Shown: positions 28,754-32,963 of the stretch, piece after piece
Position numbering within the stretch: the first letter of the stretch is position 1
How the letters are laid out: each line of letters opens with the position of its first letter
Source of the DNA: Oxalobacter formigenes
GTDB lineage: Bacteria; Pseudomonadota; Gammaproteobacteria; Burkholderiales; Burkholderiaceae_D
NCBI GenBank assembly: GCA_023667225.1
Contig: JAMPAN010000001.1
Location: 728,365-792,364 of the forward strand
Direction: 5' to 3'
Length of the DNA: 64,000 nucleotides
Made by a program: the position numbers and the translations under genes
The notes under the pieces: model-generated
Seen by the model: the letters and a program-made list of their open reading frames with translations, nothing else
Database searches by the model: none
What the model was told of the DNA's origin: nothing

Positions 28754-30625
28754 TTAATCTGTCGGATTGACTTCCACCGGGCCTTCACGCTTGATTGATT
28801 TCAATGCATTAAAAACGTCTTTCAATTTAATATTTTTTTGTTTCTGCTGTTGCCTTTCCTGCTTCTGCAACCGGCGTTGCTGTTCCTGCTCCTTCAACTG
28901 GCGCTGCTGTTCCTGTTCCTTCAACCGGCGCTGCCGTTCCTGCTCATTCAACTGCTGTTGCTGTTCCTGGCTTTCCGCATCCACTTCCTGCACCTCATTT
29001 GTTTGCGGCACGACAGGGAGATCAGATTGAATGTTGCTGCGCATATTGGTTTCAATACCAATGTCGCCTTCATCGATAGACATGGAATAAGCAATGTTAT
29101 AAGACATGAATTTTTTACCTGAATCACCAGAAAGTACGCTTGCAACCCCTGTGCACTTAAATTCGGGGCCGCCCATACTGTCCGCAGTTTCCTGTGCTTG
29201 GATAGTAAAACGCCACTTTCCTCGATATCCTTTTGAGATCAGTTCATTATTAATAAAATCTTTTTCCTTTTCAAAAACTCCTTTCATTACTCTATTTTCA
29301 ACACAGTAATTAACCTGCTGATTTGCCGTTTGTTGTTGTTTTTTCACTACCGTTGTCTGAGTGTGTTGCGTTTTGGCATTTTCACTCTGCGATAGGTCTC
29401 TAAAAATATCCGGCAAAGATGCTGTAACCAAGAAAAAAAAGATAGATAAAACAGGCAAAACAATTTTATCGTACTCAGTCTTCGCTAAAAATGGCTTTTC
29501 AACAGGTTGAAAAGCTTGCGCATAAGCCTGTTTTTCTCCATCACTTAATGACTCGATTGATGAAACAAATGCTTTTTTCTGATTAAGAAAAGACTTCCTT
29601 ATACTTTTGGAATAATCCAGTATAAAATTCCGTCTTAAAAACGCATACCCCAGAGCTAATAAGAGACCAAGTATACTCCATAAATCCCGTAAGGCAAAAC
29701 CTCCTTTACTGCCAATTCCCCATACCAGAAGCAAAGCGCAAAAAGAGGCCAGCGTTGGAATAAAACCCAGGTAAACATTACGTTCCCTGTTTGAATCTAC
29801 TGGCAGTTTATCAGCTACGATATTGCCATTACCTATTCCATCACACCAATAAGAGTAGTTATTTCCTTTATAATCAAAGACAGCATTACAAATAGGAACA
29901 AAAAGAGTTCCTGTTGATGACTCAATATGTGATAAAGTCCAGTGCCAATCTCTTTGGCGATCTCCCTGCGCATGTTGTTTAACATTGTGATCAATATTTT
30001 CGTTAATTTCTTCACTTAACGAATCAAAAGCCAGTTTTTCCGGAATCGCAAAACTTTCCGCCGTAACCCCTTGCATGAAATCAGGATTAAATGCAGTTCG
30101 TTCAGCGTTGGCAATAATAGATGGAATCATTTCTGCCGGAGTGAGCGTTAGGGAAGTCAAATCAGTACCGGCATAGATAGATACTTCAAAAGTATTGGCA
30201 TCCGTACCATTAACGGGCCGCCAGTCTGTTACCGTACGGTATGCTGTATAGGCCTGACGGCGGCCATTAACTGTTTTATAATCGGTATAAGGCTCTTTCC
30301 TGTCATATCCAAATGAAGCTGTCCATTCTGCCTGATAATCAATTTTAAACAGGTAGGCGGGAACATAAAAACGTTCTCTTTTGAGAAAAGTGGCGGATTG
30401 AATAATGTCGTCCGGCGCATAATTATCTTCTGCTAAAAAGGTATAAACCTGATTTTCAAGGTCTTTTTGATTAGTTGATAAAGGAATTATCAAATCTACT
30501 TCCGTTGGAAGTTCATCCTCTGGCCGCTTAATTTCATTTAACGTATTGCAATAAGGACAAATCAGTGATTGACTGCCAGGCTGATATTCAATTTCCGCGC
30601 CACAGTTTTTACATTGTTCAGACAT
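28754..30625 (-). CDS. Hypothetical membrane protein with an N-terminal zinc ribbon, central TM helices and a C-terminal Q/E/R-rich coiled coil (623 aa), encoded on a low-GC island
   Basis: CKNCGAEIEYQPGSQSLICPYCN zinc ribbon at residues 5-27. Three or more hydrophobic helices at about residues 290-410. C-terminal EQEQQRQLK nonapeptide repeats. ATG at 30625 with a GAGGAAGAG RBS. Local GC about 40%, versus about 60% in the flanks. Confidence 0.7.
   Translation of the reverse strand: MSEQCKNCGAEIEYQPGSQSLICPYCNTLNEIKRPEDELPTEVDLIIPLSTNQKDLENQVYTFLAEDNYAPDDIIQSATFLKRERFYVPAYLFKIDYQAEWTASFGYDRKEPYTDYKTVNGRRQAYTAYRTVTDWRPVNGTDANTFEVSIYAGTDLTSLTLTPAEMIPSIIANAERTAFNPDFMQGVTAESFAIPEKLAFDSLSEEINENIDHNVKQHAQGDRQRDWHWTLSHIESSTGTLFVPICNAVFDYKGNNYSYWCDGIGNGNIVADKLPVDSNRERNVYLGFIPTLASFCALLLVWGIGSKGGFALRDLWSILGLLLALGYAFLRRNFILDYSKSIRKSFLNQKKAFVSSIESLSDGEKQAYAQAFQPVEKPFLAKTEYDKIVLPVLSIFFFLVTASLPDIFRDLSQSENAKTQHTQTTVVKKQQQTANQQVNYCVENRVMKGVFEKEKDFINNELISKGYRGKWRFTIQAQETADSMGGPEFKCTGVASVLSGDSGKKFMSYNIAYSMSIDEGDIGIETNMRSNIQSDLPVVPQTNEVQEVDAESQEQQQQLNEQERQRRLKEQEQQRQLKEQEQQRRLQKQERQQQKQKNIKLKDVFNALKSIKREGPVEVNPTD
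28862..28969. repeat. 4 x 27-bp in-frame tandem repeat inside the 623-aa gene
   Basis: Units cttctgcaaccggcgttgctgttcctg / ctccttcaactggcgctgctgttcctg / ttccttcaaccggcgctgccgttcctg / ctcattcaactgctgttgctgttcctg. They encode the coiled-coil nonapeptide repeats (EQEQQRQLK). Confidence 0.8.
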
Positions 30626-30648
30626 CTCTTCCTCATTGGTTGTTATTA

Positions 30649-31329
30649 TCAGGCTTTATTTCTGGCAGAATGCAAAAACACTTCTCTTTTTGCCAAAAGT
30701 ATGTCAATTTGTTTTATTTGATTTTCTATGGAATTTTCAGGATCTTGGGAAAGTTGTGAGCCAAGTGCCTGAATGGCTTGTTCTATATCATGATCATGAG
30801 GTGTGCCTCCCTGAATATCGCTGGCAAGATAGCGGAATTTTTCAGAGAGTGAATCCAGAATACGTGCGTTTTTCGCTGAGGCGGTGGCGCGAATAACCTG
30901 GATATTATTCCCCCATTTGATGTGCAAACTGGGAGGCGCACTTACCTTAACTTGGCTGACTACGCGCATGGATGCGCGTAGTGACAACAAGCCAATCAGA
31001 AAAGTGCCAACTGTAAAAACATCCAGAGCCATAGCAAGCTTATTGAAGTTCGTTAAAGAAAGTACAACGGATCCAGTAGAGAGAATTAGCATAAAACCAG
31101 CTATAACACTGGCAGGGCCAATAGCAGCAAAGGTTGCCGTGTTGTTCGATTCATTGCTTCTGATAAAACTTGGCGCAAGAAAAAGAAAGGAAACAGCCAA
31201 TACAAAAACTGCTATCGAGATAATAGTGGCAGTTGTCCAGGCTTGTTCCGGAATCAGAATGTAGGAGATAACGACAACAATAAAACTGGCAATTAAGGCG
31301 CAAATATTGAATATGCCGAAAGTACGCAT
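30649..31329 (-). CDS. Hypothetical 4-TM membrane protein (226 aa) in the SPFH operon
   Basis: Four hydrophobic helices in the first about 120 aa, then a soluble C-terminal domain. ATG at 31329 with an AAGGA RBS. 14-nt gap to the upstream gene and 23-nt gap to the downstream gene. Confidence 0.65.
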   Translation of the reverse strand: MRTFGIFNICALIASFIVVVISYILIPEQAWTTATIISIAVFVLAVSFLFLAPSFIRSNESNNTATFAAIGPASVIAGFMLILSTGSVVLSLTNFNKLAMALDVFTVGTFLIGLLSLRASMRVVSQVKVSAPPSLHIKWGNNIQVIRATASAKNARILDSLSEKFRYLASDIQGGTPHDHDIEQAIQALGSQLSQDPENSIENQIKQIDILLAKREVFLHSARNKA

Positions 31330-31343
31330 GGTTTTTCCTTGAA

Positions 31344-32657
31344 TTATTGGGCTTCACCGCATGACGGACAAAATTTGGCTGTAGCAGTAATTTCGGCTCC
31401 GCATTTCTTGCATGACGGCACTATCTTGAAGCCACATTCAGGGCAAAACCTGGCCTTGACAGGAACGGGTTTTTTGCATTGTGGACAATCGACAGGTAAA
31501 GGGAGGTTACAGTTTCTGCAATGCGTTGCGCCTGATGGATTGTCTTCTCCGCATTCTGGGCAAGCGTTGACGGGATCAGCACAATTTGGACAGAATTTGG
31601 CTCCTTTGGGGATAGGCGCCTGACACTTGTCACAAGTGATGAATTTATTCTGATCTTGATTCCCTTGACTCTGGCTGACTATTTGTAAGCTGTTACCGCA
31701 ATTGTTGCAGAATTTGCCTCCCGGATTATTGGGAGTGTCGCATTTAGGACAAGGGATGCTAACTTCTGAAGGCGTATTTACCTGCATGTTCGGCGCCATT
31801 TGGGAAAACATATTTCCCATGGGAACGCCGATACCTACTCCCATTCCCATGCCCATGCCAGCCCCCATCATACCGCCAGCGCTGCCCTCATTTCCTGCTG
31901 CTGTTTCCAGGACATCAAAACTACGCTGTTGTTGATAGTTTGTTCCCAGAAGACTCATCTCTGTACGTCTTGCCAGGGCATCTTTTAAGGTTTTTACCGC
32001 CGGATCGTTTTCTGGAACATTAATGGAATGGATATTAAACTGGACTAATCCAACGCCGTATTCTTCCATTTCCGGCAAAAGCGCTTCCTTGAGCATATCT
32101 GAAAGCATCTCAAGTTGCGTTGAAACTTTTAATACAGAAAGACCGTGTTGGATAATGGCATTGGCAATGCTGGTTTTTATTTTTGTTGTAAAGACTCCTT
32201 TGAAATAGTTGGATAAAGTTTCTACATCAAAGGCGGGAAGAGTACCGACAAATTTCAAGAGAAATTTTTTGGAATCAGCAATTTTGATACCGTATTGCCC
32301 AAAGGCTCTAACGGGCACCATAATGTGATATTCAGGGTCTTCCAATTGGATGGGATCAGGTGTTCCCCATTTAATATCCAGATTGGTTTGCCGGTTGATA
32401 TACCAGACTTCTGCTGTGAAAGGGGATTTTCCACCAAAGGGCAACCCCATCAGGGTTCGTAGCAAGGGAATATTTTCTGTGGAAAGAACATGCCGTCCGG
32501 CATTAAAAGGCCCTTGATACACTCCTTCCTTGACAAGATAGGCTTCCTGCGTTTCGTTAACAACAAGTTGAGTCCATGTGGATAACTCTTCCGATGGAAA
32601 CTTCCAGGCAATAATGCTCGGATTCGCATTCCATTTCACCATATCTACAATAGCCAT
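31344..32657 (-). CDS. SPFH/Band-7-like protein (COG4260-type, often annotated 'putative virion core protein') with a Gly/Met-rich linker and five tandem C-terminal zinc-ribbon motifs
   Basis: The N-terminal about 280 aa match the SPFH-like fold family typified by B. subtilis YdjI. Linker AGGMMGAGMGMGMGVGIGVPMG. Five repeats of a 'C-x-x-C ... F-C-x-x-C-G' zinc-ribbon motif. ATG at 32657 with a GAGGGA RBS; the TTG at 32717 is also possible. Confidence 0.75.
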   Translation of the reverse strand: MAIVDMVKWNANPSIIAWKFPSEELSTWTQLVVNETQEAYLVKEGVYQGPFNAGRHVLSTENIPLLRTLMGLPFGGKSPFTAEVWYINRQTNLDIKWGTPDPIQLEDPEYHIMVPVRAFGQYGIKIADSKKFLLKFVGTLPAFDVETLSNYFKGVFTTKIKTSIANAIIQHGLSVLKVSTQLEMLSDMLKEALLPEMEEYGVGLVQFNIHSINVPENDPAVKTLKDALARRTEMSLLGTNYQQQRSFDVLETAAGNEGSAGGMMGAGMGMGMGVGIGVPMGNMFSQMAPNMQVNTPSEVSIPCPKCDTPNNPGGKFCNNCGNSLQIVSQSQGNQDQNKFITCDKCQAPIPKGAKFCPNCADPVNACPECGEDNPSGATHCRNCNLPLPVDCPQCKKPVPVKARFCPECGFKIVPSCKKCGAEITATAKFCPSCGEAQ

Positions 32658-32963
32658 GTTTCCCTCGAAAATAATGGTTGGCTTACCTGTCTCTATATTG
32701 GCACAGGTTATTTCCAAACCAACAAAACACGCTGCCCCTCTGACAAGGATAAAAAGATTTTGTTTTTATCAGAGGGATTACTTAGATTTTTTGAACAAAG
32801 AACAAGCTAGATAGCCTTGGTTAAGAACCATTTTCTTTCATCAACTTCACCTTGCCTTTTTCAACCACAGCCATATTCATGTTTATTATCTTTTTTCCCC
32901 AAAAAACTGCTTAATTATTGAAATAGTTCCGTTAAAAAACAGGCAGAAAAAATACCTGCCGCC

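Follow-up and report, generated by a model that had tools for sequence, protein, structure and literature searches.

A recently inserted operon of an SPFH protein, a four-helix membrane protein and a YdjG-like protein in Oxalobacter formigenes, with no PspA gene nearby

Gene Content of the Locus

The DNA analyzed here, hereafter the window, is a stretch of 64,000 nt (64 kb) from Oxalobacter formigenes (GenBank assembly GCA_023667225.1, contig JAMPAN010000001.1, positions 728,365–792,364). Next to rarA, it contains a triad of minus-strand genes, here designated g1, g2, and g3. They encode a soluble SPFH protein with a zinc-ribbon tail, a small membrane protein, and a large membrane protein with an N-terminal zinc ribbon. 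g1 and g3 resemble YdjI and YdjG of the Bacillus subtilis operon pspA-ydjG-ydjH-ydjI, while neither PspA nor YdjH is encoded in the window. The first-pass annotation of this DNA described three tightly spaced genes, and the listing of open reading frames (ORFs) of the window gives the same three ORFs, spaced by 14 and 23 nt. A Shine-Dalgarno-like, purine-rich ribosome-binding sequence is present ahead of both intergenic gaps. The genes and their parts are as follows; transmembrane is abbreviated as TM.

31344..32657, minus strand: g1 (437 aa; extended in the ORF listing to TTG 32717), soluble Band_7_1 SPFH protein, YdjI homologue
32007..32606, minus strand: SPFH/Band_7_1 domain of g1, residues 18–217 from the ATG (38–237 in TTG numbering)
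31758..31892, minus strand: Gly/Met-rich low-complexity linker of g1, beginning with GGMMGAGMGMGMGVGIGVPMGNMF
31347..31751, minus strand: five-zinc-ribbon array at the C-terminus of g1, ten CxxC motifs
30649..31329, minus strand: g2 (226 aa), four TM helices and a predicted helical cytoplasmic tail
28754..30625, minus strand: g3 (623 aa), YdjG-family membrane protein
30536..30625, minus strand: N-terminal zinc ribbon of g3 (C5, C8, C23, C26)
29801..30508, minus strand: conserved alpha+beta core of g3, predicted cytoplasmic, residues ~40–275
29396..29779, minus strand: membrane region of g3, TM hairpin (~285–304, 312–330), basic linker, TM3 (~387–406)
29006..29395, minus strand: variable C-terminal domain of g3, a small two-Cys domain predicted to be extracytoplasmic
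28808..29005, minus strand: Gln/Glu/Arg-rich coiled-coil tail of g3, QEQQRRLKE-type 9-aa repeats

Domain Structure of the Three Proteins

The start codon of g1 is very probably ATG 32657 and not TTG 32717, because homologues align from that Met and because the DNA identity with a related triad on another contig (L005, see below) begins at 32673. The closest homologue (L001) is 69% identical to g1 and aligned from Met1. g1 matches the Pfam family Band_7_1 (PF13421) with 155.9 bits (E = 1.5e-45) at profile positions 2–198 of 211, where the gathering cut-off is 24 bits. The first-pass annotation had described this N-domain as COG4260-type. At the C-terminus, Pfam finds five Zn_Ribbon_1 stretches and three DZR matches, and the SPFH-like protein with a five-zinc-ribbon tail that had been described is really encoded here. 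The hydropathy scan of g1 gave no segment at or above the threshold for a TM helix.

The tail is not constant. The ribbon number is almost bimodal among the 52 g1 homologues: 26 have exactly five, 21 have no ribbon, and the other 5 have two or three. The tail is swapped in some lineages: GYF_2 is found in Flavobacteriales (L061) and HTH_17 on a Comamonas plasmid (L084). Because other lineages put a GYF or helix-turn-helix (HTH) domain in the place of the ribbons, the sequences suggest that the C-terminal tail could be a modular adaptor.

Hydropathy and the AlphaFold2 (AF2) model agree on four hydrophobic helices in g2 (~9–27, 34–52, 65–93, and 98–116), as the earlier description of a 4-TM protein had it, followed by a tail of ~110 aa. 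The model is all helical, with four TM helices and four tail helices. It is only moderately confident (predicted local distance difference test, pLDDT, 71; predicted template-modelling score, pTM, 0.42) because the homologue alignment is too shallow: word-indexed searches gave 4 matches with the single sequence and 7 with a profile of 34 sequences. g2 can be considered as an inner-membrane protein with a cytoplasmic helical tail, a topology predicted from this model. No family of Pfam, NCBIfam, PADLOC, or PHROG was found for g2, and a Pfam MC6 (ABC-3C) match at E = 0.079 was rejected as noise. All of the 48 g2 homologues are within triad loci, and by this distribution g2 represents a family specific to this operon type.

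g3 has no family match in the profile libraries, yet it has 285 homologues, which share the first ~400 residues. In a search of its N-terminal 420 residues against 1.84 billion cluster representatives, 155 proteins passed E ≤ 1e-30 and 1557 passed E ≤ 1e-3, and the family can be put at about 155–500 clusters at 50% identity. By these counts the g3 family is small but real. The four Cys of the N-terminal ribbon are invariant in both g3-family alignments. The core behind it can be read as two helix-plus-curved-sheet modules and aligns to the core of YdjG. In the membrane region, the basic linker between the TM hairpin and TM3, predicted to be cytoplasmic, is conserved as YSKxIRxS...FQxPxKPFxAKT. 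The AF2 model of g3 (29366–30625) has a pLDDT of 88.6, with membrane-region helices at 289–304, 313–354, and 383–410. Foldseek found nothing significant in the PDB for the model or the core. The same model matched two giant-virus proteins, both named 'DnaJ-like subfamily C member 3', one of Yasminevirus (A0A5K0UBJ7, E = 4.6e-12) and one of Edafosvirus (A0A3G4ZSZ8, E = 1.7e-9).

The region behind TM3 differs among the homologues of g3: some have TPR, OmpA, LprI, or Adhesin_E domains there, and others have none. The C-terminal part of g3 is predicted to lie outside the cytoplasm, on the grounds of its three TM helices, the basic linker, and the envelope-type domains of these homologues. The two-Cys domain found here has no Pfam match and is common only to P0002, P0004, and P0006. 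It is followed by the coiled coil, whose 9-aa Q/E/R repeats are encoded by about five 27-nt tandem repeats at 28844–28978. The repeat number could be changeable by slippage, as such tandem sequence might allow. A PHROG tape-measure match on the coiled coil was rejected and put down to composition. With the CxxC...CxxC ribbon, the TM segments, and the coiled coil all found, the earlier description of the third protein stands.

Comparison with the ydj Operon and Other SPFH Operons

To our knowledge, YdjI is so far the sole Band_7_1-type SPFH protein that has been studied, and it has been seen purely as a PspA adaptor in Bacillus. The YdjI protein of B. subtilis is soluble and reaches the membrane only with YdjG and YdjH. 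The Ydj proteins interact in two-hybrid assays, and PspA is recruited by YdjI (Scholz et al. 2021, PMC8581546). The account by Ravi et al. 2024 is confined to the ydj operon of Firmicutes and to other contexts of band-7 genes (PMC11237479). A PspA-free triad was nowhere described in the literature searches.

Two metagenome contigs with the B. subtilis-type pspA-ydjG-ydjH-ydjI, fetched via the ydjG primer of PMC8581546, were used as the reference. Their Pfam content agrees with the published description: Zn_Ribbon_TF in YdjG, TPM_phosphatase (3e-23) in YdjH, and Band_7_1 plus a zinc ribbon in YdjI. g1 and YdjI (locus L086) are 23% identical over 268 aa (BLASTP 3e-20; phmmer 3.6e-23). The g3 family profile aligns to residues 54–305 of YdjG with an hhalign probability of 97% (E = 8.6e-11). 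In the fetched loci, 52 ORFs of the g3 family are matched by a single phmmer pass with YdjG (best E = 6e-37), and jackhmmer iteration from YdjG reaches all g3-family ORFs, including g3 of the window.

The result for YdjH is different. Neither phmmer nor jackhmmer with YdjH gave a match in the window or in the 82 fetched loci, which extend up to 10 kb on each side. BLASTP between g2 and YdjH gave E = 0.33, and no TPM match was seen on g2. YdjH is a TPM-domain protein and g2 is dissimilar to it, and a descent of g2 as the YdjH equivalent was rejected. Since YdjI matches g1 and YdjG matches g3, but YdjH does not match g2, two of the three components can be considered homologous. By these comparisons, g1 is a true, if distant, homologue of YdjI, g3 is one of YdjG, and g2 is a different protein. 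The resemblance to a YdjG/H/I module, proposed in the first-pass annotation, holds for the first and the third protein and fails for YdjH.

The triad and the ydj operon both encode a soluble SPFH protein together with two membrane proteins. g1 and YdjI both have Band_7_1 and one or more C-terminal zinc ribbons, without TM helices. YdjI has a Met/Gly/Asn-rich segment before its ribbon, analogous to the linker of g1. g3 and YdjG share an N-terminal ribbon, a homologous alpha+beta core, which is YpeB-related, and membrane anchoring by TM helices. The differences are as clear. There is no pspA in the triad operon. The middle gene of the triad encodes four TM helices and a helical tail, whereas YdjH has a TPM domain. 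The SPFH gene is first in the triad and last in Bacillus. g1 has five ribbons and YdjI one; g3 has one and YdjG two. g3 has three TM helices and a predicted periplasmic part of ~210 aa, in contrast to the one C-terminal TM of YdjG (341 aa). Finally, the host of the triad is Gram-negative. What is new here is a triad free of PspA and YdjH, with a 4-TM family of its own and a YdjG-type protein of far greater size.

A second arrangement is seen in Paracoccus chromids, a Comamonas plasmid, Flavobacteriales, and Massilia. Here, as in the triad, a Band_7_1 gene is associated with a YdjG-like gene, which follows it immediately. On the Paracoccus and Comamonas replicons, the second gene is annotated as 'zinc ribbon' or 'TFIIB-type zinc ribbon-containing protein'. 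Unlike the triad, these pairs have no g2, their SPFH tails are GYF_2 (Flavobacteriales) or HTH_17 (Comamonas), and their g3 counterparts are ~360–430 aa, without an extended C-terminal domain. The classical SPFH operons (HflK/C, FloT/YqiK-YqiJ/YuaF, and stomatin-NfeD) also co-encode an SPFH scaffold with a small multi-TM partner, and their products are presumed to form oligomeric microdomains. However, their SPFH protein has its own TM or hairpin anchor, its best family is Band_7 or flotillin and not Band_7_1, the partner is NfeD/YqiJ-like, and zinc-ribbon components are absent. No NfeD or related Pfam family was found on g2 or g3 at E ≤ 0.1.

PspA was searched with two seeds, one of E. coli (validated with PF04012 at 9e-49) and one of the B. 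subtilis type, which detect each other at 3e-20. Neither seed matches any ORF in the 82 fetched loci or in the 64-kb window. The first-pass annotation had noticed no PspA/IM30 gene in the window, and this absence extends to the fetched loci.

Distribution of the Triad

With each GTDB species represented by one genome, the scan gave 77 loci with g3 relatives. With three metagenome loci, this gives 80 distinct loci. g1, g2, and g3 are collinear in 42 of them. g1 and g3 without g2 are seen in 10 (Flavobacteriales, Tannerella, Massilia, Aquaspirillum, and Ottowia), g2 and g3 only in one, and g3 alone in 27, several of which are on truncated contigs. Because the same gene order is found in 42 independent loci, the arrangement is not a matter of chance, and the three genes do co-occur outside the window. 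The carriers are Betaproteobacteria, Acidobacteriota, Chlorobi, termite-gut 'Deltaproteobacteria', Bacteroidota, and Clostridia.

Most YdjG-like genes of Clostridia have no SPFH gene nearby. In eleven loci from clostridial metagenome-assembled genomes (MAGs) (L064, L066, L067, L071, L073, L074, L076, L077, L079, L081, and L082), the YdjG-like gene (374–455 aa) is always followed by a gene for a bitopic protein of 156–212 aa with an N-terminal TM and a beta-rich ectodomain. With no SPFH gene nearby, these pairs are another two-gene form of the superfamily. A weak TFIIB-type zinc-ribbon match was seen in the YdjG-like protein of L071, the one locus scanned.

Three other variations are observed. 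In L004, one g1-g2 pair is followed by two tandem g3 paralogues (7643–9592, 649 aa; 10001–12001, 666 aa), and the contig also has McrBC, SprT-like, HU, and ParA-like genes. In seven loci (L005, L024, L029, L038, L041, L043, and L044), a gene for a small inner-membrane DUF805 protein adjoins the triad. It is located downstream of g3 in L005 (9731–10123) and 144–424 nt upstream of g1 in the termite-gut clade. The DUF805 protein may be an accessory fourth component; no DUF805 gene is present in the 64-kb window. L021 is a g3 fragment; its contig, of 4.4 kb, had been assigned to an archaeal MAG (Nitrosopumilus). Because the fragment is 46% identical to a betaproteobacterial protein, it is probably a binning artefact.

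Horizontal Insertion in O. formigenes

The annotation of the triad proteins comes from one NCBI MAG, of O. formigenes (with locus tags NC112_03750/03755), and each of these proteins is a one-member cluster. The G+C content (GC) of the triad is 0.422, against 0.555 in the ±10-kb flanks, a mean drop of 13 points (−0.133). The low-GC block noticed earlier is thus present, but the depth of 20 points given for it applies only to local minima of 0.36–0.39, compared with neighbouring intervals of up to 0.63.

Exact-protein look-ups of rarA, gdhA, g1, and P0001 gave no record, and contigs with the empty site were reached through an exact look-up of the csp protein. These related Oxalobacter contigs show ~80.5% DNA identity to positions 24146–28746 of the window, and the match ends 3 nt past the rarA stop. 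In two of them, rarA is directly followed by an ORF of 299 aa, 51% identical to the window ORF at 32967–33848. In a third, a GGDEF gene comes after rarA. None of the three contigs has the triad.

L005, a contig from one of the same samples, contains a triad with 86.7% DNA identity to positions 29447–32673 of the window, plus the last 81 nt. The shared segment extends from the ribosome-binding site of g1 to 5 nt past the stop of g3, and only the part encoding the C-terminal domain of g3 has diverged. Since the identity starts at 32673, the AT-rich spacer upstream of g1 is outside the shared cassette. The L005 triad is surrounded by resolvase, YqaJ, DUF932, DUF805, and PglZ genes. The empty sites in related contigs and the 86.7% identical cassette in a different, mobile context give good support to a recent horizontal insertion of the triad between rarA and the 299-aa ORF, and the earlier reading of horizontal acquisition is upheld by both. 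No target-site duplication, att site, or integrase was found at the triad junctions. Synteny with other Oxalobacter triads was considered and rejected: their g3 is 33–35% identical, and they are at another locus, not between rarA and gdhA.

This mobility is not characteristic of the whole family. The GC difference between triad and flank has a median of 0.00 over the 42 loci, and the neighbours of the triad are mostly housekeeping genes. The window and L005 (−0.11) are the extremes of this distribution. These values indicate that the triad family is usually a resident gene set and that this sub-clade is currently mobile. At the second-closest triad (L095/L096; g3 is 60% identical in its N-terminal two-thirds), a BrnA-antitoxin gene adjoins at 4345–4733, a hint that the sub-clade travels with mobile or toxin-antitoxin genes.

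Possible Function

The triad could be considered as a self-contained operon for a membrane-anchored SPFH scaffold complex, a variant of the YdjG/YdjI system without PspA and YdjH. We give this reading a probability of about 0.5, and the view that PspA is not an obligatory operon partner belongs to it. The SPFH superfamily oligomerizes into rings or cages on membranes, as cited in PMC10936438. Judging by homology and architecture, g3 and g2 would be located in the inner membrane, with the ribbon and alpha+beta core of g3 and the helical tail of g2 facing the cytoplasm. g2 and g3 may jointly recruit the soluble g1 to the inner leaflet. g1 would then oligomerize at the membrane and organize or stabilize a membrane patch. 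The lineage-variable C-terminal domain of g3 might extend into the periplasm and, as a sensor or tether, connect the complex with the envelope. This coupling domain would be OmpA-like, TPR, LprI, or adhesin-like in relatives, and the Cys-pair domain with the coiled coil in the window. The role is likely envelope-stress tolerance or membrane maintenance.

Several observations weigh against this scaffold reading. A single phmmer pass with YdjG misses g3 of the window, and the link requires a profile or iteration. g2 is unrelated to YdjH, and therefore the anchoring role is transferred to it by position only. The zinc ribbons are missing from those 21 of the 52 g1 homologues. The PspA search of this genome covers the 64-kb window, and pspA may be encoded elsewhere in the genome. 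Besides, the closest cassettes adjoin resolvase, YqaJ, and PglZ genes (L005), McrBC (L004), and BrnA (L095), a neighbourhood that fits a conflict system too.

The homology of g1 and g3 to YdjI and YdjG would also be expected if the triad were a PspA adaptor acting in trans, which tethers an ESCRT-III-like PspA/IM30 encoded elsewhere to damaged membrane. Ravi et al. propose that abbreviated band-7 operons without pspA may use PspA encoded elsewhere (PMC11237479), and SPFH and ESCRT-III genes are linked in archaea too (PMC10936438). However, none of the 77 genome loci, which come from several phyla, has pspA in the fetched DNA, which argues against an obligatory coupling. YdjH, the reported direct binder of PspA, is likewise missing from the window and the 82 loci, and a moving cassette would need a host PspA in every recipient. 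An adaptor in trans is thus unlikely, if still worth consideration. Even less probable is an SPFH regulator of a membrane protease or quality-control machine, similar to HflK/C-FtsH or stomatin-NfeD, with its client encoded elsewhere. g1 is a bona fide SPFH protein (Band_7_1), and SPFH proteins often cage or regulate membrane proteases, which is established for HflK/C (cited in PMC10936438). But no protease or NfeD (PF01957) domain was found in g2 or g3, and the 25 Pfam families seen most often in the neighbour sample (defined below) include neither. Band_7_1 proteins do not have the TM anchor of HflK/C and stomatin, and YdjI, the only characterized member, has a different role. A protease regulator can therefore be regarded as very improbable.

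The first-pass annotation suggested phage defence and a defence-island context. An anti-phage or abortive-infection system could be imagined in which the periplasmic domain of g3 senses envelope perturbation by phage and the SPFH and 4-TM parts disrupt or seal the membrane. The low-GC horizontal insertion here, the patchy distribution of the family, the defence-type genes beside the closest cassettes, and the hypervariable C-terminal domain of g3 are in its favour, and 4-TM proteins are generally known as common defence effectors. In contrast, no PADLOC-DB 2.0 family is matched by g1, g2, or g3 at E ≤ 0.1, their PHROG matches are confined to zinc-ribbon or coiled-coil stretches, and a tblastn search of phage genomes with g3 gave nothing. 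The neighbour sample comprises 149 proteins, encoded within ±3 genes of the triad in the first 29 of the 42 triad loci (in locus order). Their commonest Pfam families are DUF805 (9), HTH_3 (4), YdjM (4), and housekeeping enzymes. PADLOC matches among them, given as raw counts, are sporadic: one PglZ, two Cas12/TnpB-like proteins, and generic HTH proteins. The GC of the triad is host-like in most genomes, and the triad contains no nuclease, NTPase, or other enzymatic effector. The defence suggestion finds no positive support in these data, and an anti-phage role is doubtful. It can also be speculated that the triad is an autonomous trans-envelope system without any ESCRT-III/PspA partner, in which the periplasmic module of g3 detects phage, bacteriocin, or lysozyme-type attack and triggers an assembly of g1 and g2 that seals or permeabilizes the inner membrane. 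We consider this improbable as well; if true, the triad would be a mobile SPFH-based immunity or damage-response cassette of an undescribed kind.

The data show the YdjI/YdjG pair as a conserved dyad that occurs in many phyla without PspA. The third partner is lineage-dependent: a TPM protein in Bacillus and the new 4-TM family with a helical tail in the triad. Because the dyad occurs without PspA and the third partner varies by lineage, the distribution suggests the SPFH/zinc-ribbon pair as the primary machine, to which one lineage added the coupling to PspA. The cassette of O. formigenes, 3.9 kb in size, was transferred recently and contains no other genes, and it is therefore convenient for the heterologous expression of a Band_7_1 complex on its own.

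Flanking Features

The following features lie around the triad.

32658..32963, minus strand: AT-rich spacer upstream of g1, containing the hairpin of the preceding ORF and a presumed promoter of the triad
28688..28715, minus strand: terminator-like hairpin downstream of g3, a 12-pair stem followed by a T-run (consensus match only)
32964–33863, minus strand: 299-aa ORF upstream of g1 (listed as 32964–33917, 317 aa)
34125–34496, plus strand: divergent XRE/RstR-like HTH gene (HTH match)

In the spacer, a hairpin at 32960–32942 (GGCAGGTATTTTTTCTGCC followed by a T-run) is terminator-like and belongs to the preceding 299-aa ORF. Because of this hairpin at the 3' side of the 299-aa ORF, the triad is probably transcribed separately. 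A scan of the spacer (32658..32963) gave no consensus sigma-70 promoter. The hairpin downstream of g3 is located inside the 3' end of the convergent rarA.

The triad had been placed between rarA and gdhA. On one side this is correct: rarA (MgsA_C/AAA match) converges on g3, with the stop codons 10 nt apart. On the other side, gdhA (ELFV_dehydrog match) does not adjoin the triad, and the 299/317-aa ORF and the XRE HTH gene intervene. The 299-aa ORF has no match in Pfam, NCBIfam, PHROG, or PADLOC. It is a conserved neighbour of rarA in L087 and L088, where the protein is 51% identical and the adjoining backbone DNA ~80%, and it may be a fast-evolving gene. The XRE HTH gene is preceded by a near-perfect palindrome of 16+16 nt at 34031–34063 (GCCTTTATTCAACCTT A AAGTTGAATAAAGGC), which is a likely operator. 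In the related Oxalobacter contigs, the side of the HTH gene is replaced by two genes for small zinc-ribbon proteins.

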